Made by a program: the position numbers and the translations under genes
Source of the DNA: an uncultured Planctomycetia bacterium
GTDB lineage: Bacteria; Omnitrophota; Gorgyraeia; 1-14-0-20-64-10
Direction of reading: 5' to 3'
Assembly: GCA_964373805.1 (NCBI GenBank)
Contig: CAYJWF010000003.1
Coordinates: 23,001-87,000, forward strand
DNA: 64,000 nucleotides
Part shown: positions 42,956 to 59,573 of the stretch, in pieces
How the letters are laid out: every line of letters starts with the position of its first letter
Position numbering within the stretch: position 1 is the stretch's first letter
The notes under the pieces: model-generated
Told to the model about the DNA's origin: nothing
Seen by the model: the letters and a program-made list of their open reading frames with translations, nothing else
Database searches by the model: none

Positions 42956-42957
42956 CG

Positions 42958-44046: not shown

Positions 44047-44984
44047 AAAGCAAACTTCTGGTGTGTGCGGGCCCAGTTCACCATTCGGCAGATGCCATCC
44101 CGGAGAGGGACCCGCGGTTCCCAGCCCAACCCCTTCCGGATAGCTCGGATATCGGCGAAAATAACCTCCTGGTCTCCAGGCGTCGCCTCTATTTGTCTGA
44201 TCGGATAATCTTCATGGAGTCCCATGGCCATGAGCAGTTCGGCAATTAAGGCGCGAACCGAAGTCCGACAGCCGCCGGCCACGTTCAAGACGCCTTTTGC
44301 CGGTCCTTCAAGCGCCATCTCCCAGGCGGTGACGACATCCTCTACATAAACGAAATCACGTATTCGATCCAAGGAACCCTTCACGATCAAGGGTTCCTGT
44401 TTGAGCAGATAGGCCAGATAGATGCTGACCATCCCCTGCTTCTGATCTTCTAGGTTTTGGCCAGGGCCGTAGACGCTGAACATGCGCAAGGAACATGTTC
44501 GCAATCTTTGGGCGGTGACGACTCGCAGGATCTGTTCAGCGCTGTGTTTCGATGCGCCGTAGTAAGATATCGGTCTTGGGTGGGTCACCTCTGAAACAGG
44601 TTGATCGCCCACGAGCCCGTAAACGGCCATAGAGCTGGCGTGCAGGAACGTGGGGATACCCTGTTCGATGGACCAAAGGGCCAAAGAAAGTGTCGAGCGA
44701 GCATTGGCATCGAAGTCATCCAAGGGATCTTCAAAGGATTTTTCGCCAGAGGATTGGCCCGCCAGGTGACAGACAGCCTTGTAAGGCCCACGGGGTAGTT
44801 CATGGGTGGAATCGGGCCTTCTCAGATCAACCTTAAGAAACTCTGCTTCCGGTGGAACGTTCTCTTTCGAGCCCGTGGAAAGATTATCTACGATGGTGAC
44901 GGAGTAGCCTTTCAAGATCAGTCGCCGTGCCAGATGGGATCCAATAAACCCCGCCCCTCCCGTGACCAAAATACGTCCTCGCAT
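44043..44984 (-). CDS. NAD-dependent epimerase/dehydratase (SDR)
   Basis: VTGGAGFIGSHL and YGASK motifs. Start at internal ATG (MRGRILVTGG). Track ORF extends to 45056. Confidence 0.7.
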   Translation of the reverse strand: MRGRILVTGGAGFIGSHLARRLILKGYSVTIVDNLSTGSKENVPPEAEFLKVDLRRPDSTHELPRGPYKAVCHLAGQSSGEKSFEDPLDDFDANARSTLSLALWSIEQGIPTFLHASSMAVYGLVGDQPVSEVTHPRPISYYGASKHSAEQILRVVTAQRLRTCSLRMFSVYGPGQNLEDQKQGMVSIYLAYLLKQEPLIVKGSLDRIRDFVYVEDVVTAWEMALEGPAKGVLNVAGGCRTSVRALIAELLMAMGLHEDYPIRQIEATPGDQEVIFADIRAIRKGLGWEPRVPLRDGICRMVNWARTHQKFAL

Positions 44985-44997
44985 TATGGGGTTCCTT

Positions 44998-45873
44998 TCA
45001 CTCCATGTCCTTGATCGACAAGAGGTCCCCGACGGTTTTCCCTTTGGGGTACTCAACGTTATCCAGATGAACCTGAGCCAGGATATCGTTAGGCAAATCC
45101 ATTAGGGTATCCGTCTTGCCCGAAGGCGTATCTCCCTTGCCGAGATAAACCACACAGTAACAGACCGACTTTACGGGCAAAATGGCAGATTCAGGTGGCT
45201 TCCCATAGTAACCGATAGCGACCAGGGTGCGAGGTCTTGGTTCCAACCCGTTATGGAGGAATTCAAATATGGCCTGAGGGTTGCTCAAGACGTAAGGGAC
45301 GACGGTCTGGCCTTCATGGATCGGATCCGCTGTTGGAAACCGCTTCTTCAACACCATGTGCGATGTCGATAGTTCGTATTGATAGGGAACCGATACAAGA
45401 CGAGGCAGGTCAAGGACACAACCCTTGGCGGCTACACGGTATAGTTCCTGGACGATCCTTTGATAATTCGGGTTATGGTTCAGCACCCCTGTGCACACCG
45501 CCAGATCAAAGCTTCCATCCGGGAAGGGTAAATGGGAGCCATCGTTAACTTCAAACTGTACCGACGGATAAAAGGACCTGGCCTTCCGGATCATTTCGGG
45601 TGAGACATCAAGCCCCACATAGCGAATCCTCCGATTTAGAGTTTGGAGAAGGCTTAGGAATCCTCCTGCTGCGCAACCGAAATCCAGGATGCTGGCGCAG
45701 TTTTTAAGGGCCGGCATGAGGAGTGCGCGCTCTGAGTCGTAAAGGTCACCGACGTTTCGGCGCTCCTTCGCATAGTATTCGACGATATTCGATTGAGACC
45801 AGGCGGTGAAATTGTTCTCAGCCTGTGAAACGGGATTCATAGGCTTGTCATCCATTCCGGTGAAATAAAACAT
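44998..45873 (-). CDS. class I SAM-dependent methyltransferase
   Basis: LDFGCAAGGFL motif I, acidic GLDVS, LAVCTGVLNH. Strong AGGGAG Shine-Dalgarno 6 nt upstream of the start at 45873. Confidence 0.7.
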   Translation of the reverse strand: MFYFTGMDDKPMNPVSQAENNFTAWSQSNIVEYYAKERRNVGDLYDSERALLMPALKNCASILDFGCAAGGFLSLLQTLNRRIRYVGLDVSPEMIRKARSFYPSVQFEVNDGSHLPFPDGSFDLAVCTGVLNHNPNYQRIVQELYRVAAKGCVLDLPRLVSVPYQYELSTSHMVLKKRFPTADPIHEGQTVVPYVLSNPQAIFEFLHNGLEPRPRTLVAIGYYGKPPESAILPVKSVCYCVVYLGKGDTPSGKTDTLMDLPNDILAQVHLDNVEYPKGKTVGDLLSIKDME

Positions 45874-46675
45874 TGGAAGCTCCCTTAAATTGCGGATGAA
45901 GATGTCCGTACCGGTAAGGGTAGCAGGCTGCTTCTTTAAAACCCCGATCCGACAAGAAGGTTCGAACCAAAGAAGATTGAGGATGGGCCTCGTCCAATTC
46001 TACTAAAAGGCTCTTTACGCTCCGGAGGCTCCCTTCGGCGCCCTGAAGGATAATCAACTCGGTTCCATCCACATCCAGCTTTAGGTGAGTTGGGGCGGGC
46101 AGCTTAAATTGCTCAACGAGGGTATCCAGGTCAAACGTTAATACAGCCGCGCTCGCGGCAGGATGAAAATCCCTGCCCCGGTAATCCTTCGCCTCGCCCA
46201 AGGCATGCAGGGCGCCTCCCGGCGTCAGATTCGCGTAATGAAAAGTGTCCAAACCTGTGGTGTTGGCCAAGGCAACGGGCAATGGCGTTACCCATCGTTC
46301 GAATCCGTTTAACGTCAGATTCGAGAGTAAACGGGCAAAATTGAATGCACTCGGTTCAATCGCCACAACCCGGACGAGTTCCTTCCAGTAAGAAGCGGCC
46401 ACCAGCGTGTAGGTTCCCACGTTTGCGCCGATGTCGTAGAAGACATCCCCCTTTTCCATCTCGCGTTCAATCCAGGCGACCATCTCCGGTTCCTTGCGAC
46501 AGGCATGTAACCGAGTGTGGTATTCCACTTCCGAGGAAACCCCTAATCGGATGGCGTGTCGATCGTAATCGAGCAGCCCGATGACTTGTCCCGGAAGGCC
46601 CAGCCGAAAATGAAGCTTGGCAGAAACACGTCTTAGATACCTGGAGATCGCTTCCACCATCGGTTTCCTAGACAC
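45848..46675 (-). CDS. FkbM family methyltransferase
   Basis: FYDIGANVGTYT motif diagnostic of FkbM-type O-methyltransferases. Confidence 0.7.
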   Translation of the reverse strand: MSRKPMVEAISRYLRRVSAKLHFRLGLPGQVIGLLDYDRHAIRLGVSSEVEYHTRLHACRKEPEMVAWIEREMEKGDVFYDIGANVGTYTLVAASYWKELVRVVAIEPSAFNFARLLSNLTLNGFERWVTPLPVALANTTGLDTFHYANLTPGGALHALGEAKDYRGRDFHPAASAAVLTFDLDTLVEQFKLPAPTHLKLDVDGTELIILQGAEGSLRSVKSLLVELDEAHPQSSLVRTFLSDRGFKEAACYPYRYGHLHPQFKGASNVLFHRNG

Positions 46676-48471
46676 CCGTCGCTCTGCAGGGCTATTTCTT
46701 CTGTGAGCCTTTTCGTCCAGTCATCCAGCCAGTTTTTCTTTTCACGCGCGTAGCGATCCACAAAAATGCTTCGGGCCTGTTGGATCTCTTGGCCTCTCCA
46801 CCACAGCTCGGGGTCATGACAAATCGCCTTGACCTTGACCGCTGCCTCTTCAGGTGAATTCCACAGGATACCAGCGCGACGGAGTTCTTCGAAATAAGGA
46901 ACGGCTTCATCTCGTATCTCCCACCTCTGAGGATCCCAGAACATCACTGTCGGAACATTCGCTGCCAAGATTTCTAAAAGGGGAGTGGATAAATGGTCAA
47001 CGACAACGAGACGGCTTTTCCGAAGGCTCCGACAAAACGGAGTGCCATTGCCGTCCCAACGCAATTCGGGAAACTCTGTGGAGTACCACTCTCGGAGCTT
47101 GTGCCCAAAGTGATGCCGATGGGGCCGAAAAAGGATAAGCGCACGCAGCGGATTGGGAAGCGCTCTTAAAAAACGAAGTTGCCAATCAAAATATTCCTGG
47201 AGCTGTGTTCCTTGGGGCGAAGAGTAGAAGCGGTAGAGATATCGAGGATTGGTTGTGGCAACAAAAAGGACACCCCGCATCTTCTGAGGATCCCGATGGC
47301 CCAGCCGATTCGTCAAGGAAGAAATTTGGAGAGAAGGTACGTTCTGCAGGTGTCCCTTCTTCTGATCGGCCCATCCCCATACGAGAAAAGAGTCCGATAC
47401 ACAGCGCTCATGTTGTTCCATCGGGGCCGCACGGTAGATCCCGTATCCGCCTCCATGTTGAACAGCGACCAACCGGCGTCCTTTTAGCTGGGCCTCCGCG
47501 GCCAGGAATTTGAACGGTTCGTTAAAATACCAGCCGTTTCCCGATACAATTACAGACGGAATTCTAGGGTTTTTTCTAAGCAGCTCCTTATGGGCTTGAT
47601 GGAATCCTTCACAATAGAGGGTCGGGAAATTCTTTGGCAGGGAGTTCACAAAGACAGATTCGAACCCGTTGACTGTAGGAAGTGCGGCAAGCCCATTCCG
47701 GCGGTGGTCAAAGATCGGGTTCCACGTGGTCTGGGTCCATCCACCCCTTGGCTTTAAGGGCAGGGCTCGCAGGCCACTGCGCCAGGCCAGGGTCCATGCC
47801 GTGATGCTGGAAACAGCGAGGTCACAAAGAGCGACCTCACATCGGCGACTCAAGAGTCCTTGGGCAACGTCCTCTAGCTGGTCAAGGCTCCGCCGGACTG
47901 CAACCTTTACCCAACCGGATCCAGCGGCTCTCAGCGTGGGCTTTTTCTTCACGGCCCAGTCGGGTTGCAGCTTTTGAGCTGGAAAGAAAAGCCCCATGGC
48001 TTGGAACAATTGAGAAAAGATCTGAAGATTATACGGATCCTCCCGGATGGAATCGATGTACTCCGATGTGTCCTGGGGGACATGGAACGATTGAGGGTCC
48101 AAAACAATCGTCTGCCATTTTGGATATTTATCGTAGGCCTCTAGGAGATGCATGTACCTATCGTAGGCAGCGTGAAGATAGTGAAAGAGCCATGGCCCTA
48201 CGAGTATCCGCCAATACCGACGATTAAAGCTCACTTGATGAACCCCGTTCAAGTAATCGCTCAAGTCAACCAGCATACGCTCATAGCATTCCTCGAGATA
48301 GCGGGTCGCGTGGAGGTGCCGGCTTCGATCATCCCAAGGGCTTGGCATCACCCGATACCGAAGAGGGTTCCACTCCGAGCGCCTGTCGTATCGAAGACAC
48401 CAAGAACCCAGGAAGAGGATTTCTTGGTTCTTATCCCAGAATTGGCTCAGCGCGGTTGTTGCCAGAAACAT
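46633..48471 (-). CDS. hypothetical protein, paralog B of the three-member family (putative transferase, LIC12162-like?)
   Basis: 612 aa. N-terminal EILFLG and central PSVIVSGNGWYFNEPF...RLVAVQHGGGYG block align with 37094..39220 and 61727..63808. Confidence 0.5.
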   Translation of the reverse strand: MFLATTALSQFWDKNQEILFLGSWCLRYDRRSEWNPLRYRVMPSPWDDRSRHLHATRYLEECYERMLVDLSDYLNGVHQVSFNRRYWRILVGPWLFHYLHAAYDRYMHLLEAYDKYPKWQTIVLDPQSFHVPQDTSEYIDSIREDPYNLQIFSQLFQAMGLFFPAQKLQPDWAVKKKPTLRAAGSGWVKVAVRRSLDQLEDVAQGLLSRRCEVALCDLAVSSITAWTLAWRSGLRALPLKPRGGWTQTTWNPIFDHRRNGLAALPTVNGFESVFVNSLPKNFPTLYCEGFHQAHKELLRKNPRIPSVIVSGNGWYFNEPFKFLAAEAQLKGRRLVAVQHGGGYGIYRAAPMEQHERCVSDSFLVWGWADQKKGHLQNVPSLQISSLTNRLGHRDPQKMRGVLFVATTNPRYLYRFYSSPQGTQLQEYFDWQLRFLRALPNPLRALILFRPHRHHFGHKLREWYSTEFPELRWDGNGTPFCRSLRKSRLVVVDHLSTPLLEILAANVPTVMFWDPQRWEIRDEAVPYFEELRRAGILWNSPEEAAVKVKAICHDPELWWRGQEIQQARSIFVDRYAREKKNWLDDWTKRLTEEIALQSDGCLGNRWWKRSPGI

Positions 48472-50503
48472 CCACCCTCCTCCCGTACGTCATTCTCCTC
48501 GTCAACCGCTGGATTCCTCCCAGCCTTTGGATCAGTTTGACCATCCCGGAGAGTTGGGTTCCATAACGAGTAAGGGCATCCTGTCTTAAGAGGACTTGCT
48601 CCTCACTGAACGTAAAGCTTAGCCAAATTGGGTCAGCCCGATGGTACGATCCCAGCGACGCCGAGGGATCATCGGTCAGCCAGGCGGGCAGATCAAAGCT
48701 GAAGCTTTCGCTCAGTGCCTCTGGGTGCGCAGTCAGTTGAAAAGCTCCCTCCATGCGACACAGGGTAAAACGCTTTAACTCCTCGAGCTCTTGTGGTTGG
48801 ATATCCCGCAGCCTTTCCTCTAAGAATTTTTCCGAGATGGCAAAAACCGTGTCCAGCCACTCTCGTGCAGCCTGGGATAGCATCCACGTTTTGTGCTTGT
48901 AAAGAACATTGCCGCCCGCCTCACCGGTGAGAAGCTTTTGGTAATGCTCAGGGCTGGAGTAAAAAGCGATGAGCTCCTCCTCGGAATCCCAAAGCTCGTT
49001 GAGGGTTTCAGAGGTAAAGCTATCAAAAATGGTCTTAACGGCTGCAGGCAGATGGGTGGTTTCACGATAAATGGCTTCGATCCAATCCGAGATTAGCAAT
49101 CGATGGGAGCGAATATATTTCTTAAGCGCTTCACAGAGAGTGCCGTTGTAGCAAAGGTCAATCACAAAGAGGAGTTTTCGGGATTCCAGGTAATCTTCTA
49201 GTGAAAAGGCGTTGGTCGCTACGGCGACTTCCTCGGTGTCAAATACGCAACGTCCATTGTAAGTTCCAAAATCAAGTGGAACCACCCGGTATTTTCGGAT
49301 AAAGCCATATTCCCGGATATAGGCATCGTTATCTTTGTAAGGCGTTCCATGCAACATTTGCAGCGTGTGTACGACGATGGTACTCACCTGAGAATCCAGA
49401 AGGTTTCGGATGCCTCCCAGATGCGAGATCCAGGTCTCGCCAGGCAAAGGGACAATCAGTTCAGCCACCTGCGGCCGCCCCTGGGAATTGAGCTCCTCGG
49501 AGATCGCCCGATAATGATCCAGTCGGATGTTGGACCTTTCGATCTTCTTTAACACGGTACTGTCCATCGATTGAACCGCCATGTTGATGATCAGGGTATC
49601 TTTTAGAATTCTCGTCACATCGATAACACGCTGCTTGCTATTTTTTCCGGTCCAGGCGGTTACCGAAAGAGGCCACCCATACCTTTCCTGAAGCCGATGC
49701 ATAAGTTCAGCCGTTTTGTAGTCTCGGGGAATCATGCCGAAATTGTTATCCGCGAGTGTCAGGTGTCCGACGCCCGCCCGTGAAGCCCGTTGAGCGACGT
49801 ATTGCCATTCCTCTTGCACGTATTGGTCGCTGAAAAAATCCACCCGATTGAAATACGAATTTCCCGCGTTACAGAAATTACAGGTAAAGGGACAGCCTCG
49901 CGCCGTCTCAAGCAAAGGCGCCAACCGGCCATCGAAGAATCTATCCAGAAGGCCCGTTGCGTATGGAGAGGGAATGGAGTCAAGATCTTTGATTCTTTCG
50001 ATGGATGGGCCGGAAAAGAATTCGCCGCTCTCCTTCTGGATGAATTGGCACCCTGCGATCGGCTTGGCCAGTACCTCTGGGTATTCCAAGCAAGAGAGGC
50101 GCTTTTCAATAACATTGGAGAAAGCGATTTCAGCCTCATAAAACGTATGACAATCCAATTGCGGCCTTTTGAGAAGAAATTCTCTTTGCTTCGATGGATC
50201 GAATGGGTAATTGGTTCCTCCAAAAACGGTTAGGATTTTTGGGTCAATCGATTTCACGAGTTCTAAGAAATAATAGGAAAGGTTGCTGTTCCACGTATAA
50301 TTACTGCAGCCCAAAACATGAGGGGCCCTCCGATCGATGGCCTCTCTTAAGTCCTCAGGATATTTAAAGAAAGACACCTCGATCTCGTTTCCAAATTTTT
50401 TGATCGCATAGGAACCGATCAGACCGATATTCAGAGGAAAGGCTTCTGTCGCAATTCCAACCCCCATGTGGGTCAAATCGGCAAGATAAATTCTTAGCGG
50501 CAT
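48431..50503 (-). CDS. B12-binding domain-containing radical SAM protein (class B radical SAM)
   Basis: N-terminal cobalamin-binding-like Rossmann region. CPFTCNFCN = CxxxCxxC radical SAM cluster motif at ~aa 200. Large C-terminal domain, 690 aa. Confidence 0.7.
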   Translation of the reverse strand: MPLRIYLADLTHMGVGIATEAFPLNIGLIGSYAIKKFGNEIEVSFFKYPEDLREAIDRRAPHVLGCSNYTWNSNLSYYFLELVKSIDPKILTVFGGTNYPFDPSKQREFLLKRPQLDCHTFYEAEIAFSNVIEKRLSCLEYPEVLAKPIAGCQFIQKESGEFFSGPSIERIKDLDSIPSPYATGLLDRFFDGRLAPLLETARGCPFTCNFCNAGNSYFNRVDFFSDQYVQEEWQYVAQRASRAGVGHLTLADNNFGMIPRDYKTAELMHRLQERYGWPLSVTAWTGKNSKQRVIDVTRILKDTLIINMAVQSMDSTVLKKIERSNIRLDHYRAISEELNSQGRPQVAELIVPLPGETWISHLGGIRNLLDSQVSTIVVHTLQMLHGTPYKDNDAYIREYGFIRKYRVVPLDFGTYNGRCVFDTEEVAVATNAFSLEDYLESRKLLFVIDLCYNGTLCEALKKYIRSHRLLISDWIEAIYRETTHLPAAVKTIFDSFTSETLNELWDSEEELIAFYSSPEHYQKLLTGEAGGNVLYKHKTWMLSQAAREWLDTVFAISEKFLEERLRDIQPQELEELKRFTLCRMEGAFQLTAHPEALSESFSFDLPAWLTDDPSASLGSYHRADPIWLSFTFSEEQVLLRQDALTRYGTQLSGMVKLIQRLGGIQRLTRRMTYGRRVDVSGNNRAEPILG

Positions 50504-51462
50504 GATTCCTTCTCGAGGCAGACAAAGTGGTAACCGCCCAGCGCCTTACTTCTTCCATCCAATTCAACCAGTTCTTTGAGAAAGGGTCGAATCGTATCAA
50601 TCCAATCCGATTTGATGGACCGGCGATTGGCTTCGCTCATCTTTTCTACCATTCGAATCAGGACGGGAAATAGGGGGCGCAGGCCGATGTCCCATACCCT
50701 CAAGGTCAAAGGAGAAAGATAGGAATGGTGCGACACCATCTTAAACCTGAGGCTATGGGAGAGCCTTCCCAATTCAGATTGAGAAATGGTCCAGCGGATG
50801 GATTCGCTTCTTCCTCTGTTTAACAAATGGAGAATGGGTGAGCCCGACTCTCTCCAGTGGTAACTCATGCAGTATTCCTTGAGCTTGGGATCCGGTAAAC
50901 ACAGGAAGGCCCGGCCTCCCCACCGGAGGATCCGCCACACCTCCTTGAGCGATGCCTCAGCCGAATTGAGCCAGTACAACATATTGGAAAAAATCGTCTG
51001 AAAGGATTCCTCCTGGAAAGGAAGCCCATGGTTGGCGTTTGAGGCAGCCACCCAACGATAGAATCCCAACGCTTCTGCCTGGCGTAATAAATTCGGTTTG
51101 CCGTCCAAGGCCCCATCGAATGAGGCCTCCGGTTTTCTTACGATCCAAGCCGGTTCGAAGGGAGCTCGAAGGCAGTCATACACGTCCCCATGGGTCCAAA
51201 AGCCCTTTACATCGACGTTTCGATACCAATCAAACTCCGGTGAGAACGATCCTCCCGCTGTGATGAAACTGAAAATTCCGTTCCCACAACCGAGGTCAAG
51301 CGATGGAGAATCGAACCTCACCGATGCAATCACAGAGGAAGCAATGGCATCCCATAACGCCGATTCGGGTCGAAGCCAGTGTACATTCAGATGCTCCTCA
51401 AGAAAACAGAATGGCCCCGCTTGAGATCCCCGTAAAGCTGGACTAGAGATTTGCTGAGGCAT
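50494..51462 (-). CDS. class I SAM-dependent methyltransferase
   Basis: LDLGCGNGIF motif I. Start assigned to internal ATG (MPQQISSP). The first 54 aa of track ORF 50494..51624 look antisense-derived. Confidence 0.6.
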   Translation of the reverse strand: MPQQISSPALRGSQAGPFCFLEEHLNVHWLRPESALWDAIASSVIASVRFDSPSLDLGCGNGIFSFITAGGSFSPEFDWYRNVDVKGFWTHGDVYDCLRAPFEPAWIVRKPEASFDGALDGKPNLLRQAEALGFYRWVAASNANHGLPFQEESFQTIFSNMLYWLNSAEASLKEVWRILRWGGRAFLCLPDPKLKEYCMSYHWRESGSPILHLLNRGRSESIRWTISQSELGRLSHSLRFKMVSHHSYLSPLTLRVWDIGLRPLFPVLIRMVEKMSEANRRSIKSDWIDTIRPFLKELVELDGRSKALGGYHFVCLEKESCR

Positions 51463-52078
51463 AGGCCTGCCTGCGTTGGAGCACCTTCTCTGCCAGCCAG
51501 AAGTCGAATTCATCGTCAATCTCGAGGTTTTGTTCTCGATCAGTGAACATTCGCTCGATTCGTGTTCCATACCGATCCCCTTGTTGGATGAGACTCGCTC
51601 TAATGACGTACACGTTTCCATCATCGCAAAAGAGGCCGGGCAACTCTTGGCGCCTCAACGTATTCTTCCCATACTCAACAGATTTACAGAGAAAGCCGGT
51701 CGCAAGGGAGTCTGCCTTTGTTTCGAGAAACCTCTCGATGCAACGATCGATGAGACCCGGTTCCCGAATAGGGGAAGTCGCCTGAAGGAGGACCACTATC
51801 TCTGCTGGGATCTGGGTGAGTACCTGTTGGAGAACGCTTAAGGTTGTCGCTTCGTCGCTGGCTAGGTGGTGGGGTCGGTGAATGAACTCACCTGTCCATC
51901 GCCGTGTCACCTGAGCAATCTCAGGGTCTTCCGTAGAAACGACATGCCGATCGAGAAGTCGGGAGGCCTTACCGGCTTCGATCGTCCAGGCGATGAGCGG
52001 CTTACCGGCCAAGATCCGGATATTCTTCCGAGGGACCCCTTTGCTTCCTCCCCGTGCGGGGGTTATTCCCAAGATCAT
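51443..52078 (-). CDS. acylneuraminate/pseudaminate cytidylyltransferase (CMP-nonulosonic acid synthetase family)
   Basis: MILGITPARGGSKGVPRKNIRILAGKPLIAWTIE is the canonical NeuA/PseF/LegF N-terminal motif. 211 aa. Confidence 0.75.
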   Translation of the reverse strand: MILGITPARGGSKGVPRKNIRILAGKPLIAWTIEAGKASRLLDRHVVSTEDPEIAQVTRRWTGEFIHRPHHLASDEATTLSVLQQVLTQIPAEIVVLLQATSPIREPGLIDRCIERFLETKADSLATGFLCKSVEYGKNTLRRQELPGLFCDDGNVYVIRASLIQQGDRYGTRIERMFTDREQNLEIDDEFDFWLAEKVLQRRQAYASANL

Positions 52079-52106
52079 CTTATTTTCTCTAGGCTCCTCG
52101 CCCTCA

Positions 52107-52772
52107 CTAAGTCCATTGATCCCGAATAACCATAAAGGCCTCCGCAGCGGAAAACCCGATTTCCATTCCGCGTTTTTGGGAAAGTACCTCGATCCCCTTA
52201 GGAGATCGAGGATGTGGGAACTCCCTGCTCTCCCTTACATAGGCCTTCAGCGCTTCGATCTTGCGATCAAGGAAATGGCTGATATCGACATAGAAATTCG
52301 GCTGAAAGGCATACTCCTGAAACGGCGGCGCCTGTTCCGTAGAAGAAGCCACTTCATAACAGAGCAGTCGTGGTACCTTTGGCTGTGCAATCGCTCGGCA
52401 GGCGACAAGTGTTGCCTGGAAAACCGCCCGGTGGTCCTGGTTGGAATCGCCTCGATGGTGTGTGTACACGATCGAGGGTTTTACCTGCTGCAGGCAGTTC
52501 TCCAATGGGACGATGATATCCAAAAGTCTTTCATCCAATAATTCATCCCTTAGATCAAGGAATCGCACGTCTTGATAGCCCAATACCTTTGCCGCCCGCT
52601 CAGCGGCCTCTTTCTCCTCTTGGACAATGGGAGGATCGAATCGGTGGTTATAGGCCCGTTTACAAGCGATACAGACCGTCACCGAATCGCCTGCTGCCAC
52701 GTGTTTGGCAATGGTTCCCCCTACCCCAAGTATCTCGTCATCCATGTGAGCCGCAAGGATTAACACCCTCAT
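52107..52772 (-). CDS. PIG-L/LmbE family N-acetylglucosaminyl deacetylase
   Basis: AHMDDE motif, HRGDSNQDH and the second His motif region. 221 aa. Confidence 0.75.
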   Translation of the reverse strand: MRVLILAAHMDDEILGVGGTIAKHVAAGDSVTVCIACKRAYNHRFDPPIVQEEKEAAERAAKVLGYQDVRFLDLRDELLDERLLDIIVPLENCLQQVKPSIVYTHHRGDSNQDHRAVFQATLVACRAIAQPKVPRLLCYEVASSTEQAPPFQEYAFQPNFYVDISHFLDRKIEALKAYVRESREFPHPRSPKGIEVLSQKRGMEIGFSAAEAFMVIRDQWT

Positions 52773-53764
52773 TCCGTTGTCCTCGCAGCCAGCACAAGTT
52801 GATCTCGAATCAGGCCCATGATTCTTTCGGCCCCCCGACCATCCACCAAACTCTTACCTCGTAGGCTCATTCTCTGTCTAGCTTGGAAATCTGCGGCGAG
52901 TCGATCAACGGTCTGATGAATCTTGGCGTCATTAAGGTTCCCGCCAAAACCAAGATTCACCACAGTCCCCATGCCCTCTAGTCTAAGGGCCGTCTCCACC
53001 TCAAAAGGCTCCCCACAAATGGCGATGGCAGGTGTCCCTACACAAGCCAATTCAAACAAGGTGATCCCACCAGCCGAAATGGCCAGATCGGCCTCGTGCA
53101 TCAGCCTGGCCAAATTTGTCGCATCGTGAATGTGGGTCAGATCAAGAGTGGAAGCCGCCAGCGCTTCCTTTAGTTGGGATTGGTGCCGAAAGGCCGGTCC
53201 CGTAACAACCCACACATGGGGACGGTGGGCCATGCCTTCCAATGCGCGGACAACCTTGGGGGTAAAACCATAGGTGTCACTTCCTCCCTGGGTGATTAAC
53301 AGTTTCTGAACCTGCCGTCGACTCGGTTTCTCCCGGCAGTGGAGCTTTTGGAATTCTCTCCTAAGCGCCATGTAAGAGATCTCGGTTACAGCCCGAGGGG
53401 TATGGTACAAAATGTTGATTCGCAGATCTGCAAGCTGTGCGCCCTCCGCCGTATCTTCCATGGTGACGACCAGGCCAGCAAGGCTCTTAAGGGCGCGGAT
53501 GTATTCGGGGAAGTTATTCAACTTGTTAACCACCACGACGTCCGGACAAAAGGATCGAAGAAACTCCTGTTCTTCCGACAATGAATGGAATCCATGGAAA
53601 CGAAGGCCTTCTTTTTCCAGAATCTCCTGGGCCTGCGTATCCTCAGAGATCATAAACGCCGTTTCATCCGAACGCCTCAGGCACTCCTTGGCCAAGGCGA
53701 TACATCCCCAGAGATCTCCCAGCCCTTGGCGGTGATTGCCTTCTGTTCGAAAGACGATTCTCAT
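52769..53764 (-). CDS. PseG-like UDP-sugar hydrolase (MurG-like GT-B fold; pseudaminic-acid-biosynthesis-associated family)
   Basis: MRIVFRTEG...GDLWGC N-terminus, LLITQGGSDTYGFT and AISAGGITLFELACVGTPAIAI blocks resemble PseG. Assignment is from memory of the family, not a search. Confidence 0.5.
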   Translation of the reverse strand: MRIVFRTEGNHRQGLGDLWGCIALAKECLRRSDETAFMISEDTQAQEILEKEGLRFHGFHSLSEEQEFLRSFCPDVVVVNKLNNFPEYIRALKSLAGLVVTMEDTAEGAQLADLRINILYHTPRAVTEISYMALRREFQKLHCREKPSRRQVQKLLITQGGSDTYGFTPKVVRALEGMAHRPHVWVVTGPAFRHQSQLKEALAASTLDLTHIHDATNLARLMHEADLAISAGGITLFELACVGTPAIAICGEPFEVETALRLEGMGTVVNLGFGGNLNDAKIHQTVDRLAADFQARQRMSLRGKSLVDGRGAERIMGLIRDQLVLAARTTE

Positions 53765-53768
53765 GGGG

Positions 53769-54788
53769 TCATTCCAACTTTTCCCAGGTAATGACCTCGT
53801 CCTTCCGGATGGCTTGCTTGGCGAGTCGGCCGATAACGGTCCGATAAAGCGAAGGGGCTACGCCCGTTCCAGGGCGCTTCAAAATAATCTGGTCCTCAGA
53901 GATCGCTTCCCCTGCCTGAATGTCACTACGAGCGATGGCGCTCTTCCGAGTCTGCAGCCGCATATTCTCCTCAGTGGGGGCTGGACGTTTCACCTCATCT
54001 CCTAGGGCTTGTTCAAGCTCCCGAACGGCTAAGACCAACGCCTTCATTTCCGGTGGATCTGCAGAGAAAAAAGCGTCGGGTGAATCCAGGTGCTTATCGA
54101 GAGTAAAATGGCGCTCAATCACCGATGCTCCTAAAGCGACAGCACCCAGCGGAACACTCAGGGTCATCGTGTGATCTGAAAAGCCAATCGGCGCCTTGTA
54201 CGCCTTTTGCAGGGCACGAATGGCCTTGAGATTAACGAGGTGAAGATCCTTGACCGGATAGTTGGAAATGCAGTGGAGAATGGCCACCTGGTTGTTTCCC
54301 GTGTCGAGGATAGCTCGCACAGCCTCATCGACCTCCGCTAACGTAGCCATCCCCGTTGAGAGAATAATCGTTTTACCCTTCTGGGCGACATAGCGGATGA
54401 ACGGGAGATTGGTCAGATCGTCCGAACCGACCTTGTAAGCCGGCACCTCAAGTCGTTCAAGGAGGTCCACATCATCAAAATAGCTGGGGGTTGAAAAGAC
54501 CATGATCCCACGGTTTCGAGCGTGAGCAAAAAGTTCACCGTGCGCTTGTTCAGAAAGCTCATATCTCTGGAATTCTTCAAATTGATTCGTGCCACCGGCC
54601 TCTGCTGGAAAATCGACCATTCGAGAAGTAACCGTTTCTGCCCTAAACGTCTGGAACTTCACAGCATCTACGCCGCATTCCATAGCAGCGTCGATAGTGG
54701 CCTTGGCCTCTTCCAGTGTATTAAAGTTATATCCGATCTCAGCGATAATGAAGACCGGTTGGCCTGTGCCGATGAAACGATCCGCCAT
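53769..54788 (-). CDS. N-acetylneuraminate/pseudaminate/legionaminate synthase family (NeuB/PseI/LegI), full length with C-terminal SAF domain
   Basis: PVFIIAEIGYNFNT (IAEIGxNHxG-like), AVKFQTF, KVGSDDLTN, ILSTGMATL, GFSDHT, IERHFTLD, then a C-terminal SAF/antifreeze-like region. Start at internal ATG (MADRFIGTG) at 54788. Confidence 0.8.
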   Translation of the reverse strand: MADRFIGTGQPVFIIAEIGYNFNTLEEAKATIDAAMECGVDAVKFQTFRAETVTSRMVDFPAEAGGTNQFEEFQRYELSEQAHGELFAHARNRGIMVFSTPSYFDDVDLLERLEVPAYKVGSDDLTNLPFIRYVAQKGKTIILSTGMATLAEVDEAVRAILDTGNNQVAILHCISNYPVKDLHLVNLKAIRALQKAYKAPIGFSDHTMTLSVPLGAVALGASVIERHFTLDKHLDSPDAFFSADPPEMKALVLAVRELEQALGDEVKRPAPTEENMRLQTRKSAIARSDIQAGEAISEDQIILKRPGTGVAPSLYRTVIGRLAKQAIRKDEVITWEKLE

Positions 54789-54816
54789 CTTTACCTTCTG
54801 CTGGAGGGTGGAAGGA

Positions 54817-55536
54817 TTATTCAAGGATTTTCTCCAAAGTTTGCGCGCCGATTCCTTTCAAGATATCGCCACTCCTTGGACCATGGTTGAATAGAAGATC
54901 AATAGCAGACATACAAGGCAGAAACGTTTCATGGAGCTGCTGATAAATGGGATGGTGGAACGCCTGAATTTGAACCTCAACGCCCTCACTGCGGAACTTC
55001 TCTAGGTCAAGGTAGGCTTTCCCTGAAATACCGGACAGATACCTTGAAGCCCCAACCTTCTGACAAATCTCTAGGTTCAAATCTCCCTTTCGTGCTTGGA
55101 TTCCAAGTTCCGAAGAACGTTTCAAGGGTACGGAGATCGCAAAGGCCTCCAGCAGGTACCGGATGATGGTTTCGTTAAGGTCAACAAGCCATTTCCATTG
55201 GCAGTGATACAGCTTTTCAAAAAATTCGGCGTGCGCAGGAAAAAAGCAGGCCTTCCGGTAACAATCCATCAGAAGACGTAAGCAGGTCCTTCGCCAATGA
55301 GGACTCCCCGTATTATCAATCTCAACCTGATTAATGGATTGCAGGTGTCTTCCCTTAATCAAGATGGGAACCGTAAGCCAGCGGAATCCTTCAGAGGATC
55401 GGATTCTGTTCCGGTTTTGGAAATACTGTTTTCTGTACTGCACATGATCCAGAAGAACCAATAGATCCACCTGCCGGGCCTTATCGAAAAAACCAAGCCA
55501 CGGAAGGTGCTCGGGTTGGTGGATGGTTACCGTCAT
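54817..55536 (-). CDS. WbqC-like family protein
   Basis: MTVTIHQPEHLPWLGFFDKARQVDLLVLLDHVQY is the conserved WbqC N-terminus. Start at internal ATG. The upstream 101 aa of track ORF 54817..55839 are antisense-like. Confidence 0.65.
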   Translation of the reverse strand: MTVTIHQPEHLPWLGFFDKARQVDLLVLLDHVQYRKQYFQNRNRIRSSEGFRWLTVPILIKGRHLQSINQVEIDNTGSPHWRRTCLRLLMDCYRKACFFPAHAEFFEKLYHCQWKWLVDLNETIIRYLLEAFAISVPLKRSSELGIQARKGDLNLEICQKVGASRYLSGISGKAYLDLEKFRSEGVEVQIQAFHHPIYQQLHETFLPCMSAIDLLFNHGPRSGDILKGIGAQTLEKILE

Positions 55537-55564
55537 CTGGCCTGCCTTTTTACCTGCCCGGGGT

Positions 55565-56641
55565 TTACTTCCCCACTTCCTGTGGTCGTCCCACCAGATC
55601 GTCCAAGACGATGGTTCTGCTTCCGATCTTCCGGGGAACCTTGACGGTTGCTCGAGGAAGATAACACACCTGACAGGGCTCGAAGGTTTCAACGCCTTTA
55701 GATCTTCCGTGCACCTGCCGGATTTCCCGCATCGGTTTCCCGTTCCAAATCTCGTAGAGAGACTGAATTCGGGCGTCTCCAATGGGCTGACGGCCCAATT
55801 CATCGTTGATACACATAAACGCGCGGCCATCCGAGCCAATCACAAGGCGCTGAAAAGGCACGGGACAGACAAAATTCTTCACGTACTGAATCTCCGTATC
55901 CTGGTGAAGATAATCCAACAGGGTGTTGACGCTGATCTCATCGGCTATAGCCTCAAACGTACTCCAGTAGTCCTCGGGATTTTCTTGGATGGCAGGCCAG
56001 ATCCCTTGTATCCTGACGACCGGCTTAACGCTCTTGTTTCTTTTTTTGATTTCAGCGAATTTCCGAATTTTATCAACCATCGCAGGGAATTGCGCCGGTG
56101 CCCGGATTTTCTCATACGTCTGCCCTACCCCATCGAAGGAGATGGTGAGCCAATCCATCTGGAGATTGACCATCTCTTCAAACATCTCCGGGGTAAGCCT
56201 CAGGGCATTGGTGAGGGAATCCACCTCTTTGATCCCCCTCTGTTTTGCGTAACGAATGCAATCCATGAAACGGTGGTTCAGGGTCGGTTCCCCTCGCCAG
56301 CTTAGGCGGATGGAATAGACGTGGTGATCCGCCAGTTCATCTACGATCCTACAAAAGAGGGAATAGTCCAGATTCGTGTGTGGGACGGTTTTTCGAAAGG
56401 CCTCGGTAACGGTATAACACATTGGACATTTCATGTTGCAGGAGGAAGAAAGCTCCAAATCGACATGATCCGGATAGGAACCAGCCAGCCGAAGCCGAGG
56501 ATAAAGGTGCCATCGCACGCGGTTCCAGAAATATCGGACCCGGTGCCCTTTCCCTCGGTTCCAATGAAATTGGGCATGTCTCCAAAAGCCGCTAGCGCCG
56601 AGGTCTGATTTATTTATCTGCATATTTCTCTTGTCCGCCAT
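55565..56641 (-). CDS. radical SAM protein with C-terminal SPASM/twitch Cys-rich domain
   Basis: CNMKCPMC = CxxxCxxC, then C-terminal CPVPF...C...CQVCYL cysteines. Start ambiguous: ATG at 56641 or 56623. Track ORF starts 56704. Confidence 0.65.
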   Translation of the reverse strand: MADKRNMQINKSDLGASGFWRHAQFHWNRGKGHRVRYFWNRVRWHLYPRLRLAGSYPDHVDLELSSSCNMKCPMCYTVTEAFRKTVPHTNLDYSLFCRIVDELADHHVYSIRLSWRGEPTLNHRFMDCIRYAKQRGIKEVDSLTNALRLTPEMFEEMVNLQMDWLTISFDGVGQTYEKIRAPAQFPAMVDKIRKFAEIKKRNKSVKPVVRIQGIWPAIQENPEDYWSTFEAIADEISVNTLLDYLHQDTEIQYVKNFVCPVPFQRLVIGSDGRAFMCINDELGRQPIGDARIQSLYEIWNGKPMREIRQVHGRSKGVETFEPCQVCYLPRATVKVPRKIGSRTIVLDDLVGRPQEVGK

Positions 56642-57638
56642 GATAATACAGGGGCACACACCAGTGGTTCTTGGCCACCCAGTCGGTGTTTGGCAGTTCG
56701 ACATCGCGGTGGAATATCCGGTGACACGGCTGGTCGTATACCTTACCGGTAGATTCCTTCACCGGTTCAAAGACAATGTACTTGTAGTAACCGGAGCTCA
56801 TCCCCTCCGGAAACGTTAGCCGGGAAGGATAGACAGGATCCAGAACCCTCTGGGCAAACTCTCTCTTCCAATCTACGATCTCTGGCATTCGCTCGACTTG
56901 GAGGCAACCAAGGGCTGCTGTAAATTCACTGATTCTGTAGTTAAGCCCTTCGATGGAGTAGCTCGGTTTCCCGTAGTTTCGATAGGATCGGGCAAAGGCT
57001 GCCAGTGTCTCATGTCGGGTCACCAGCATTCCCCCCTCCCCTGTCGAAATGGTCTTTGTGGCGGTGAAGGAATAGATCCCCGCATCCCCCCACGTTCCAG
57101 GCCTGCGACCGTTCCACTGGGCGCCATGAGCGTGCGCGCAGTCCTCCAGTAAGAAGATCCCCTGCTTTAGGCAATAGGCAGCGATGGCCGCCACATCAAA
57201 GGCGATGTGACCTCCGATGTGAACAAGCCATGCGGCGGTTGGACGATGCGCCTTAGCCTTGCGGACAAAGTCTTCGTAAGACATGCAGAGGTCTCTTGGA
57301 TTGCAGTCGACAAATTCCACACGACCCCCCGCCTTAAGCGTAGAAAGAGGAGTGGCCATGAAGGTATTGGAGGGACACAACACCACCTGGTCTCGAACAT
57401 GGGCGTACTCCAGGGCCGCCATGGCAGCCCCAGCCCAGCTTCCCGTCGCCACCGAAGGCAACCCGTTCCATAAGGACCAGAGCTCCTCAAAGCGAGCCGT
57501 AAATGGTCCTTCCGTCCAGCGTTGGGATGTCAGAATGCGGTCCCACATTTCATGAAGACGGTTCCTGTCCCGTTGGTCAAATCCGATGGCGAAGGCCATC
57601 GTTTGTTCCGGACACATCTTAAGGTCGGAGGGCAGCAT
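56610..57638 (-). CDS. DegT/DnrJ/EryC1/StrS family PLP-dependent aminotransferase (sugar-nucleotide 4-aminotransferase, PseC/LegC-like)
   Basis: Fold-type I sugar aminotransferase layout. The FTATKTISTGEGG block is where DegT-family enzymes carry their PLP-binding lysine. ~340 aa. Alternative start ATG ~57617. Confidence 0.7.
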   Translation of the reverse strand: MLPSDLKMCPEQTMAFAIGFDQRDRNRLHEMWDRILTSQRWTEGPFTARFEELWSLWNGLPSVATGSWAGAAMAALEYAHVRDQVVLCPSNTFMATPLSTLKAGGRVEFVDCNPRDLCMSYEDFVRKAKAHRPTAAWLVHIGGHIAFDVAAIAAYCLKQGIFLLEDCAHAHGAQWNGRRPGTWGDAGIYSFTATKTISTGEGGMLVTRHETLAAFARSYRNYGKPSYSIEGLNYRISEFTAALGCLQVERMPEIVDWKREFAQRVLDPVYPSRLTFPEGMSSGYYKYIVFEPVKESTGKVYDQPCHRIFHRDVELPNTDWVAKNHWCVPLYYHGGQEKYADK

Positions 57639-58563
57639 CTGCCTTATTCCAAGTTTGGATCTGTTGTTCCTGACGGGAGCGATACCAATCGATATAACGC
57701 TCTAGTCCATCTCGGAAGGTGGTGGTGGCCTTCCAGCCCAACTCCTTCTCCGCCTTGGCGCTGTGGACACGCTTGCCCGGAAAATCCCCTGGTCGAGCGG
57801 AGGTGGCCAGAACCTGAACGTCTCCTAAGATCTCCTGAAGGGTCTGGACAATCTGTTTAATGCTGATACGATCACTTCCATCCAGGTTGTAGATCTGGTT
57901 GACTGCACCGGGTTTCAGGCTCAGCACAATGCCTTCCGCTAAGTCCTCCACGTAAACAAACTGGCGGAACTGCATGCCGTCCCCTGCAACCGTTAGCGGC
58001 TCTCCCTTCAAGGCCCTGCCGACGAAAATGGGGATGACTGCCCCATCGCGCGCTCGCGGACCATAAGGAATGCCAAAGCGAAGGATCGTGTATTCCAAGT
58101 TGTACAGTACGGAATAGGCACGGCAGTAGTATTCGGAGGCAATCTTGGTGGCCGTATAAAGGTGCGAAGGGGGTGGGATCGGCGTCTCCTCATTCACCTC
58201 CGCATCGGGGCAATCGCTGTAAACCCAGCTGGTACTTCCATAGAGGAGGCGCTTGACACGACAGCGTCGTGCAGCCTCTAGAACACAGAGGGTACCCCGT
58301 GTATTAACGGTTTCTGCGTAGGATGGATCTTCCATGACCTCCTTGACATCGGCGACTGCCGCGAGATGTATGACGGCGTGGATTCCCGCCATGGCAATCC
58401 GGAGAGCCTCAACGTCCAGGATGCTTCCGATGAAATGTTCCACCTCTGTATGAACCGTTGAACGATGATGGTCAAAGATCAGGGGTGTAATCCCGTGCGA
58501 CATCAAGCGATCCACCACATGGGAACCAATAAACCCCGCGCCACCTGTCACGAGAACTCTCAT
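57619..58563 (-). CDS. NAD-dependent epimerase/dehydratase (GalE-like SDR)
   Basis: VTGGAGFIGSHVV and YTATK motifs. Confidence 0.75.
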   Translation of the reverse strand: MRVLVTGGAGFIGSHVVDRLMSHGITPLIFDHHRSTVHTEVEHFIGSILDVEALRIAMAGIHAVIHLAAVADVKEVMEDPSYAETVNTRGTLCVLEAARRCRVKRLLYGSTSWVYSDCPDAEVNEETPIPPPSHLYTATKIASEYYCRAYSVLYNLEYTILRFGIPYGPRARDGAVIPIFVGRALKGEPLTVAGDGMQFRQFVYVEDLAEGIVLSLKPGAVNQIYNLDGSDRISIKQIVQTLQEILGDVQVLATSARPGDFPGKRVHSAKAEKELGWKATTTFRDGLERYIDWYRSRQEQQIQTWNKADAALRP

Positions 58564-59573
58564 GCGACCGTTCCTTTTTGGGCAGACGCCAGATGCCGTC
58601 GAAGAAGCTCCAAAGCGGTCTTCGCCGCTTTGGTCTGAGATTCCACGGTGGCCCCTGCCATATGCGGTGTGATGACGATCTGCCCCCGTTGATGGTAAGC
58701 CAAAAGAGGAGAGTTCTTCTGCTGATGGGTTACCTCCCCGGCTAACACATCCAATCCAACGCGCAGATCCGGTCGCTTGGAAAGAACATCGGCCAAGTCC
58801 TGTTCAAGGATGACCTCTCCACGGGATGTATTGACCAGACAAGCCCCCCATTTCAGTCTTTCGAGAAAGGAGTGGTTAATGAATCCTGTCGTTTCAGGGG
58901 TAAGTCGACAGCAAAGACAGATAACTTCCGATCGGCTAAAGAGTTCCTCCAGCGATTCGGTGGGATAGACATCGGAGGTGACGTACGGATCGAAGTAGGA
59001 TACTCGAGCCCCAAAGGCAATGCAGTAATGGGCCAACCGCTGACCGATTCGCCCAAGGCCGATGATTCCCACCCGTTTACCCTGCAATTCGTGGCCTCGA
59101 AGTCGCTCCTCTCGATCCCGCCATCGCCCAGCAGAAACTTCTTGGATTGCTACATCGAGGCGGCGAAGGGTGTTCAGAAGTAACAAAAACGTGAATTCCG
59201 AGCTGGCCGAGATCTGCACGAGAGCGGCTCGATCATCCAAGAGGCTGTAGACGGAAACCCCTCGCCGGGTACACGCCTCCAGATCGATGTGGTTACAGCC
59301 GGTGGAGGGGGTAACCAACACGGACAGAGAAGGATACAGGTCCAAGATCGCCTCATCGATGACAAACAGTTGTCCAGGGTTTACCACCCATGCCGTAAGG
59401 TCCTCCGCAGGACTCAGCTCTTGACGACGCCAGATCTCTTTAAAGATGGTTGGGATCAAGGACTGGTAGGCCTCCACGAGCTTTCCGAGGAATTCAAACG
59501 GCGCACTAAAGAGGCACCATCCGGTTTTTACACCTGCGAGAGCCGTTGGGGAAGATGGATGGGGTGTCCCCAT
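58560..59573 (-). CDS. D-isomer-specific 2-hydroxyacid dehydrogenase family protein (NAD-binding)
   Basis: GIIGLGRIGQRLA dinucleotide-binding motif, conserved R/E/H catalytic arrangement (TSRG...ITPHMAG). Confidence 0.7.
   Translation of the reverse strand: MGTPHPSSPTALAGVKTGWCLFSAPFEFLGKLVEAYQSLIPTIFKEIWRRQELSPAEDLTAWVVNPGQLFVIDEAILDLYPSLSVLVTPSTGCNHIDLEACTRRGVSVYSLLDDRAALVQISASSEFTFLLLLNTLRRLDVAIQEVSAGRWRDREERLRGHELQGKRVGIIGLGRIGQRLAHYCIAFGARVSYFDPYVTSDVYPTESLEELFSRSEVICLCCRLTPETTGFINHSFLERLKWGACLVNTSRGEVILEQDLADVLSKRPDLRVGLDVLAGEVTHQQKNSPLLAYHQRGQIVITPHMAGATVESQTKAAKTALELLRRHLASAQKGTVA

Follow-up and report, generated by a model that had tools for sequence, protein, structure and literature searches.

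What two radical S-adenosylmethionine (SAM) enzymes do in an operon for a surface sugar is the question raised by a 64,000-nt stretch of DNA from an uncultured Planctomycetia bacterium (positions 23,001 to 87,000 of contig CAYJWF010000003.1, assembly GCA_964373805.1), referred to below as the window. The original prediction, made from the letters of the sequence, had recognized in it a B12-binding radical SAM protein and a second radical SAM protein of the SPASM type, embedded among genes of a nonulosonate (sialic-acid-like sugar) pathway. The observation was confirmed by our analysis and its interpretation was partly supported. The second protein (55565-56623, minus strand), a Twitch enzyme, belongs to the core of a sugar-gene module that recurs in many phyla, and the B12 enzyme (48431-50503, minus strand) is an occasional accessory of that module. 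On balance we think it probable, if only by a little, that the Twitch enzyme is a keto-forming sugar oxidase serving the adjacent DegT aminotransferase and that the optional B12 enzyme is a sugar C-methylase; the substrates, the site of attack and the products are what we infer. We regard the assignments to families and to this gene context as solid, and the chemistry as a well-motivated hypothesis.

Families of the two radical SAM enzymes

In its longest form the open reading frame (ORF) of the Twitch enzyme spans 55565-56704 on the minus strand and encodes 379 amino acids (aa), which contain the motif CNMKCPMC, a Radical_SAM domain (PF04055, residues 85-223, above its cut-off) and a SPASM match (PF13186, residues 280-348, E 8.9e-11). 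Gene starts were taken from public gene calls on the identical contig and from the lengths of homologues; for this gene the public calls, together with over 100 homologues that are each exactly 352 aa long, place the true start at 56623 (MQINKSD...), giving a protein of 352 aa. An alignment of 26 homologues with 53-77% identity showed only seven invariant Cys residues, C62, C66 and C69 of the CX3CX2C motif and C253, C271, C317 and C320, and no other Cys reaches 90% conservation. When the family profile was compared with the Protein Data Bank (PDB), the top solved relative was BtrN (E 1.1e-9), the 2-deoxy-scyllo-inosamine dehydrogenase of butirosin biosynthesis (PDB 4M7T), and the four C-terminal Cys align column for column with four Cys of BtrN (169, 187, 232 and 235 by count in chain 4m7s). 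The AlphaFold2 (AF2) model of the protein (pLDDT 90) likewise had BtrN as its top Foldseek match (4m7t, E 4.5e-10, TM 0.72 on BtrN), followed by SuiB, SkfB, DesII, anSME and EpeE, of which EpeE gave the best root-mean-square deviation (4.7 A). In BtrN the auxiliary cluster is single and ligated by four Cys (PMC10337720). Because the four C-terminal Cys align with the ligands of this single cluster, we classify the 352-aa enzyme as a BtrN-type Twitch radical SAM protein with one auxiliary cluster. A full SPASM domain with seven Cys and two auxiliary clusters was rejected, since only four C-terminal Cys are conserved; the PF13186 match is significant, but the model matches Twitch domains too. 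The position between WbqC and DegT and the CNMKCPMC motif were as first described; the SPASM label had to be given up.

All NCBIfam matches of the Twitch enzyme, among them a tungsten-cofactor maturase (91 bits) and maturases of sactipeptides and ranthipeptides, lie far under their cut-offs, and the family therefore falls outside every curated model. The nearest homologue in a species-representative genome is 71% identical. With BtrN, its best match by profile and by fold, which acts on an amino-carbohydrate, the enzyme shares the CX3CX2C motif and one four-Cys auxiliary [4Fe-4S] cluster of matching positions and spacing. It differs in being 100 aa longer, with a conserved N-terminal helical hairpin rich in Arg, His and Trp and a C-terminal beta-hairpin, and in its context, which is a NeuB-type nonulosonate pathway and not 2-deoxystreptamine synthesis; its substrate is probably nucleotide-linked. 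We do not regard it as an orthologue of BtrN: the identity is only about 15%, NeuB lies nearby in 36 of 37 loci, and no 2-deoxy-scyllo-inosose synthase or other aminoglycoside-pathway family appeared in the family scans of the window or of the related loci.

The 690-aa product of 48431-50503 carries a B12-binding domain (PF02310, residues 46-131, 35.5 bits against a cut-off of 32.1) upstream of a radical SAM domain (PF04055, residues 199-358), and the three Cys of its motif C204-P-F-T-C208-N-F-C211 are invariant in 25 homologues. This is the architecture of class B radical SAM enzymes, and cobalamin binding is predicted. The domains, the motif and the place of the gene between a methyltransferase and a large transferase were thus all found as first described. 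A family profile built on homologues with 44-67% identity matched TokK (E 1.6e-63) and CysS (E 2.2e-57) in the PDB and nothing else below 1e-3, and the best NCBIfam match was the KedN5 family (NF033712, 181 bits), over residues 53-402 only. Four features of TokK can be compared, W76, D250-A-N252 at the 'GGE' position, R324, which reaches the SAM carboxylate, and W215 (PMC9204698). W76, which blocks the lower axial position of cobalt, corresponds to an invariant W71 in the B12 enzyme, D250-x-N252 to an invariant D252-N253-N254 and R324 to an invariant R323; W215 is dealt with below, where the reading is weighed.

The B12 enzyme has in common with TokK, ThnK, CysS and KedN5 an N-terminal cobalamin Rossmann domain with its axial-blocking Trp, a radical SAM core with D-x-N, a length of about 680-690 aa and an extra C-terminal domain. 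Unlike these enzymes, it is encoded in a surface-sugar operon and not in an antibiotic cluster. TokK, ThnK and CysS each methylate sp3 carbons several times over (PMC9204698). The B12 enzyme thus falls in a clade whose characterised members, TokK and CysS, are C-methylases acting on unactivated sp3 carbons, which supports the C-methylase type given in the original prediction. The closest precedent for C-methylation of a sugar is provided by the class B C-6' methylases GenK and Fms7, which methylate an amino sugar at its terminal carbon; they fall into another sequence cluster than TokK and CysS (PMC9204698).

Conservation with nonulosonate genes

When GTDB species representatives, one genome for each species, were scanned with the Twitch protein, 45 loci were obtained, distributed over the Chloroflexota, Elusimicrobiota, Omnitrophota, Nitrospirota, Nitrospinota, Planctomycetota, Acidobacteriota and Proteobacteria and one archaeon. 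The counts given here refer to the 37 loci of at least 12 kb and to genes within 10 kb. NeuB was present near the Twitch gene in 36 of the 37 loci and DegT in 32, followed by WbqC (29), the PseG-like hydrolase (28), the PIG-L deacetylase (27), a short-chain dehydrogenase/reductase (SDR) of the module type (25), the cytidylyltransferase (18), orthologues of the methyltransferase of the window (17) and the LIC12162-family transferase (17), while the B12 enzyme was found in only 3. The association with NeuB holds down to 33% identity. For four homologues examined singly, in Rhodoferax, Elusimicrobia and metagenome contigs, the same gene set was seen in the order DegT, SDR, Twitch enzyme, WbqC, NeuB, PseG-like hydrolase, PIG-L and cytidylyltransferase, with or without the methyltransferase and the LIC12162 transferase. 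The Twitch enzyme thus belongs to the core of the module and the B12 enzyme is an occasional accessory, and the claim that both lie within a NeuB/DegT/cytidylyltransferase sugar pathway and are conserved together with it stands.

Searching 1.8 billion cluster representatives with the Twitch profile yielded 1,008 representatives of 50%-identity clusters at E<=1e-30, a set which takes in more distant Twitch-type paralogues. Among the best hits the Twitch enzyme was fused, in single ORFs, to NeuB with SAF, to CTP_transf_3, to an SDR, to two kinds of methyltransferase and to a 2-hydroxyacid dehydrogenase. The NeuB-Twitch fusion was verified as a single ORF on its contig, where it is followed by genes for a carrier protein, an adenylating enzyme and an N-acyltransferase. 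The fused methyltransferase has no similarity to that of the window, and the fused SDR (29%) and 2-hydroxyacid dehydrogenase (29-30%) share little identity with their counterparts there; these fusions back a linkage in the pathway and not orthology of the partners. The dehydrogenase fused to the Twitch enzyme (P0426) is of the same family as the one encoded at 58560-59573 of the window. A second SPASM/Twitch-type gene, 22-27% identical, was noticed in the same cluster in L004, L013, L014, L016, L020, L023-L026, L036, L046, L047 and L050-L052, which suggests that regions of this kind often make use of radical chemistry for surface sugars.

Homologues of the B12 enzyme with 44-67% identity occur in clusters with NeuB, PIG-L, CMP (cytidine monophosphate)-transferase and LIC12162 genes. 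The short B12-family pattern used to scan metagenomes was too general, so that true family members made up 8 of the 80 loci obtained. One related locus (L006, 10001-14157) has two tandem B12 radical SAM paralogues, and in another (L002) the B12 copy is fused to a methyltransferase domain. A homologue of 57% identity lies in a cluster for a sulfated glycan, and one of 36% identity beside acyl-chain enzymes. The B12 enzyme is accordingly an accessory tailoring enzyme of such glycans and most probably a C-methylase. Three of the B12 loci (L006-L008) share downstream HMGL-like and LdpA-like Fe-S genes, and L007 also has an HpcH/HpaI aldolase; these genes are absent from the window. No Rfam family was matched anywhere in the window, and therefore no cobalamin riboswitch is present in it.

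Gene content of the operon and comparison with known pathways

The genes between 46.6 and 58.6 kb form one tightly packed operon on the minus strand, in which start and stop codons overlap. The gene at 57619-58563 encodes an extended SDR whose nearest relatives are short GalE-type 4-epimerases (PDB matches 4zrm and 2p5u, both UDP-glucose 4-epimerases), and a DegT/PseC/LegC-like sugar aminotransferase (56610-57638; PF01041, E 6.2e-54) adjoins the gene of the BtrN-like Twitch enzyme (PF04055 and PF13186). WbqC, of 239 aa, is encoded at 54817-55536 (PF08889, E 1.4e-68), a NeuB-type nonulosonate synthase at 53769-54824 (PF03102, E 5.6e-84) with its C-terminal SAF domain (E 2.5e-12), and a PseG-like nucleotide-sugar hydrolase of the GT-B fold at 52769-53764 (TIGR03590 PseG, E 1.9e-30, 106 bits, cut-off about 153). 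Then come an N-deacetylase of the PIG-L/LmbE family (52107-52772; PF02585, E 1.8e-22), a cytidylyltransferase resembling CMP-nonulosonate synthetases (51443-52078; PF02348, E 6.6e-26; PseF model 99 bits, cut-off 205.7), a class-I SAM methyltransferase of 322 aa (50494-51462; PF08241, start from the public gene call), the putative C-methylase of the TokK/CysS/KedN5-like clade described above and, at 46633-48471, a transferase of the LIC12162 family (TIGR04331, 484 bits over its full length, cut-off 225), which likely passes the finished sugar onto the glycan. Between the methyltransferase gene and the start of the B12 gene there is an overlap of 10 nt.

As in the pseudaminic (PseBCHGIF) and legionaminic (LegBCHGIF) acid pathways, a DegT aminotransferase, a PseG-like hydrolase, a NeuB-type synthase and a CMP-transferase are encoded in one operon, but each of these shared enzymes scores below the equivalog cut-offs. 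The synthase gave 348 bits with NeuB_NnaB and 290 bits with PseI (cut-off 340), both under the cut-off, and the aminotransferase fell short with PseC (129 bits, cut-off 423) as well as with LegC (111 bits); Epimerase_2, which would mark a hydrolysing 2-epimerase of the LegG type, matched the PseG-like protein at E 0.0013 only. It is known that 4,6-dehydratases carry T-D-E or T-S-E, as in the RmlB, GMD and UXS motifs. The SDR of the module and 20 orthologues have instead the motif ST[TS]W[VT]Y, with Trp at the position of the dehydratase Glu or Asp; the PseB model reached 45.6 bits (cut-off 408) and the LegB model 130 bits (cut-off 475), and the catalytic acid/base is absent. This W-type SDR, which may act as a 4-epimerase, an oxidase or a ketoreductase, accompanies the Twitch enzyme in about 15 of the 37 loci, and an SDR with a dehydratase motif was detected within 10 kb in only 8 of them, by a tblastn motif screen from which PseB-type dehydratases could have escaped. 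No acetyltransferase equivalent to PseH or LegH was found among the scanned ORFs of at least 200 aa between 19.7 and 64 kb, nor in the core of the related loci with Pfam-labelled genes. Since there is no canonical 4,6-dehydratase and no PseH or LegH, and the Pse and Leg models all stay below their cut-offs, we concluded that the module departs from both canonical routes, the pseudaminic and the legionaminic. The view of the locus as an ordinary nonulosonate cluster with two added enzymes did not survive, because the canonical dehydratase and N-acetyltransferase are lacking. What the module adds to the Pse and Leg gene sets is the Twitch enzyme, WbqC, PIG-L, the methyltransferase and the LIC12162 transferase.

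WbqC and PIG-L occur as a pair, being both present in 26 loci and both missing in 7, with discordance in the remaining 4. The AF2 model of WbqC (pLDDT 89.5) had no significant fold match in the PDB (best E 0.23), no Pfam match beyond WbqC itself and no PDB sequence match were obtained, and the literature calls the family uncharacterised. WbqC is a candidate partner of PIG-L that re-derivatises the amine. A parallel is found in the Leg-like cluster of Ca. Kuenenia stuttgartiensis, also an environmental bacterium, which has a deacetylase and a formyltransferase and in which deacetylation and re-acylation take place at the level of the nucleotide sugar (SugarBase, 10.64898/2026.04.20.719630). The deacetylase there, whose action leaves the amine free or re-acylated, corresponds to PIG-L, and the formyltransferase stands where the module has WbqC; the preprint mentions no radical SAM enzyme. 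At the locus of the NeuB-Twitch fusion (L134, 3022-5532) a carrier protein, an AMP-ligase and an aminoglycoside-3-N-acetyltransferase-like gene take the place of WbqC, and similar acyl-chain genes (LuxE, LuxC, FabA, KR) lie at 2096-9680 of L061. These replacement genes hint at a role of WbqC in N-acylation. Weak fold matches of WbqC recur with HUP-class nucleotidyltransferases, class-I tRNA synthetases and pantothenate synthetase.

Possible reactions and the surrounding glycan region

In the reading that we prefer, the operon would build and transfer a CMP-activated nonulosonic sugar for the surrounding lipopolysaccharide/O-antigen region. The Twitch enzyme would hold one [4Fe-4S] cluster that binds SAM and a single auxiliary cluster in which Cys residues supply all four ligands; the 5'-deoxyadenosyl radical would take the carbinol hydrogen of an amino-sugar intermediate, in the simplest case the C4-H of a UDP-N-acetylhexosamine, the auxiliary cluster would accept the second electron to leave a ketone, and the adjacent DegT aminotransferase would turn this ketone into an amine. 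The oxidation would thus stand in for the step in which an NAD-dependent 4,6-dehydratase makes the keto sugar of the Pse and Leg pathways. The PseG-like hydrolase, NeuB, PIG-L and WbqC (exchange of the N-substituent), the cytidylyltransferase and the methyltransferase would complete and decorate the sugar, and the B12 enzyme, as a methylcobalamin-dependent radical C-methylase, would add at least one methyl group to an unactivated sp3 carbon, for which the terminal C9, the N-acyl methyl or a methyl set by the upstream methyltransferase are candidate sites. In butirosin biosynthesis the ketone made by BtrN is aminated by BtrS, a member of the DegT family, and BtrD, of the PIG-L family, acts as a deacetylase; both families are represented in the module. 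We favour oxidation by the Twitch enzyme because a DegT enzyme needs a keto sugar, the usual maker of that sugar is missing, and the families of BtrN, BtrS and BtrD are known to work together.

The original prediction had left open, beside C-methylation, an epimerisation of the sugar nucleotide, and the methylase clade of the B12 enzyme agrees with the former half of that proposal, with the sugar substrate still conjectural. An epimerase of the kind of NeoN, which acts on neomycin, or of EpeE/YydG, which acts on peptides, that inverts for example C5 of the hexose or C8 of the nonulosonate, and so replaces the inverting PseB in setting the configuration, would suit a module in which PseB is missing while a GalE-like SDR of the retaining type and a PseG-like hydrolase are present; EpeE is among the good fold matches, and known nonulosonates differ mainly in stereochemistry. 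To our knowledge, however, the radical SAM epimerases NeoN, PoyD and EpeE return the hydrogen from a conserved Cys thiol. In the Twitch family no invariant or nearly invariant Cys exists beyond the three and four cluster ligands, the four at the C-terminus all aligning with the ligands in BtrN, and because there is no conserved spare Cys as a hydrogen-atom donor, dehydrogenation is favoured and we hold epimerisation to be unlikely. About equally unlikely, in our judgement, is a radical dehydratase that works with an SDR ketoreductase after the logic of AprD4/AprD3 in apramycin and takes away the hydroxyl beside a carbinol, making for example a 9-deoxy end from a C8/C9 diol in place of the 4,6-dehydratase. 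An SDR adjoins the Twitch gene in 8 loci and is fused to it in one protein, the SDRs of the window and of the fusion both lack the dehydratase residues, as a plain reductase would, and a good fold match was given by DesII, which acts on a nucleotide sugar as a radical deaminase/dehydratase. Yet the W-type SDR is far less constant than NeuB at these loci, the fused SDR is a distant relative of that in the window, and a redox-neutral reaction has no obvious need of a fully ligated auxiliary cluster that accepts electrons. That one or both enzymes are instead maturases of RiPPs (peptides made by the ribosome and modified after translation) or of cofactors, merely neighbouring the sugar genes, was rejected as extremely improbable on grounds of context, gene overlaps and fusions. 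The SPASM match and the weak maturase matches could be read in this way, but those matches lie far below the cut-offs, the overlaps with the neighbouring sugar genes leave no space for a precursor peptide gene, the association with NeuB extends across many phyla even among distant homologues, and the Twitch enzyme occurs fused to NeuB and to a cytidylyltransferase. Neither a RiPP precursor nor a HemN-like assignment, each of which would have spoken against the original prediction, turned up, and CxxxCxxC is present in both proteins.

For the B12 enzyme it is possible, although we do not expect it, that the sugar skeleton is spared and that a heteroatom-bound methyl from the class-I methyltransferase is extended, from O-methyl to O-ethyl or O-isopropyl, as by CysS in cystobactamid and as predicted for KedN5. 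CysS and the KedN5 family are among its closest characterised relatives, and CysS iteratively methylates a methyl group (PMC9204698). The overlap of the methyltransferase gene with the B12 gene, the B12 homologue fused to a methyltransferase domain and the unusual number of methyltransferases in the cluster fit as well. At other loci, however, the B12 gene comes after PIG-L or NeuB and not after a methyltransferase; one locus with a B12 enzyme (L008) has no methyltransferase within 10 kb; and in the case of TokK, which is the best match, the first methylation is at a ring carbon (PMC9204698). The methyltransferase domain of the fusion protein (P0101) is C-terminal, matches that of the window only at the SAM motif (E 4e-4) and is not its orthologue, which weakened the Rosetta-stone link between the B12 enzyme and this methyltransferase.

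Several points weigh against the reading of sugar oxidation and C-methylation that we prefer, the locus without a methyltransferase and the non-orthologous fusion being among them. The low identity with BtrN is one; the fold scores of SkfB, SuiB, DesII, anSME and EpeE are nearly equal to that of BtrN, and the chemistries of Twitch and SPASM enzymes are many. The substrate of BtrN is a free aminocyclitol and not a nucleotide sugar, and the GalE-like SDR could itself give a 4-keto sugar, which would leave the Twitch enzyme another role. PseB-type dehydratases may also have been passed over by the motif screen. A detectable DegT is absent in 5 of the 37 loci, and WbqC and PIG-L are both absent in 7. 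For the B12 enzyme, the KedN5 cut-off of 700 bits is not reached, residues after about 470 match nothing solved, and W215 of TokK, which in C-X3-C-X2-C-X-W stacks between cluster and cobalamin, is replaced by an invariant A213 (CNFCNA). Some cobalamin-dependent radical SAM enzymes, OxsB, BchE and HpnJ, are not methylases (PMC9204698). For both enzymes the chemistry is read from sequence and context, and for the Twitch enzyme from its fold as well.

Nonulosonic acids cap bacterial surfaces, and how phages attach, how the immune system recognises the cell and how flagella are assembled are under their control. Mass spectrometry has shown their chemical diversity among environmental bacteria, for the most part without assigned genes. 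In our literature search no paper linking radical SAM enzymes with nonulosonic acids was found. The module represents a pathway variant, spread over many bacterial phyla and one archaeon, with a radical SAM enzyme as a core component. If the preferred reading is true, radical sugar oxidation and C-methylation, which are documented mainly in aminoglycoside pathways, would extend to the primary biosynthesis of cell-surface glycans and would offer an oxygen- and NAD-independent way to a diamino sugar precursor. WbqC, a Pfam family without known function or fold relative, gains a partner in PIG-L and a pathway. In Magnetospirillum gryphiswaldense, CMP-activated ulosonic acids with a ten-carbon backbone and a +CH2 mass series have been reported, with no genes assigned (PMC8157484; bioRxiv 10.64898/2026.04.20.719630); Kleikamp et al. 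also observed the C10 marker in a strain of Methanococcus. It is a speculative and rather doubtful extension that a dehydratase-free radical route to sugars other than Neu, Pse and Leg, in which BtrN-like oxidation feeds amination and TokK-like methylation of the terminal carbon occurs once or repeatedly, would lead to CMP-ulosonic acids of ten or more carbons and would be the genetic basis of those C10 sugars; if so, the module would supply candidate genes for them.

From about 19.7 to 64 kb of the window every long ORF is on the minus strand, either overlapping its neighbours or directly adjoining them. Family scans identified this part as a surface-glycan region, with two heptosyltransferases of glycosyltransferase (GT) family GT9, an O-antigen-ligase-like protein, a GT4 initiating transferase, several GT2 and GT4 enzymes, at least six genes for methyltransferases, three for cytidylyltransferases and two that are NeuB-like. 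The housekeeping genes PriA, Fmt and Pgk were found upstream of it, and the DNA is therefore chromosomal. The second NeuB-like gene (59575-60318) is truncated, with 247 aa and no SAF domain, and is flanked by a D-2-hydroxyacid dehydrogenase (58560-59573) and a GT2-cytidylyltransferase fusion (60337-61737); the segment 58560-61737 may be a second module of the ulosonic-acid or acyl-side-chain type. At 40934-45056 a fusion of a methyltransferase with a HisC-like class-I/II aminotransferase (673 aa) adjoins a GFO/IDH/MocA oxidoreductase and a GalE-like SDR, which looks like a separate amino-sugar branch within the same cluster. Two proteins of about 700 aa without a Pfam domain are encoded at 37094-39220 and 61727-63808; the one of 708 aa weakly matches TIGR04326 (Leptospira LIC13510-type surface carbohydrate protein) and the one of 693 aa matches nothing. 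These two and the 612-aa transferase had been described as paralogous transferases, a relationship which we rejected, as BLASTP revealed no pairwise similarity (E 0.15 and 0.41). Odd among the sugar genes is a 607-aa protein encoded at 29958-31781, which combines a fervidolysin-like prodomain and a subtilase domain with a concanavalin/LamG-like domain.

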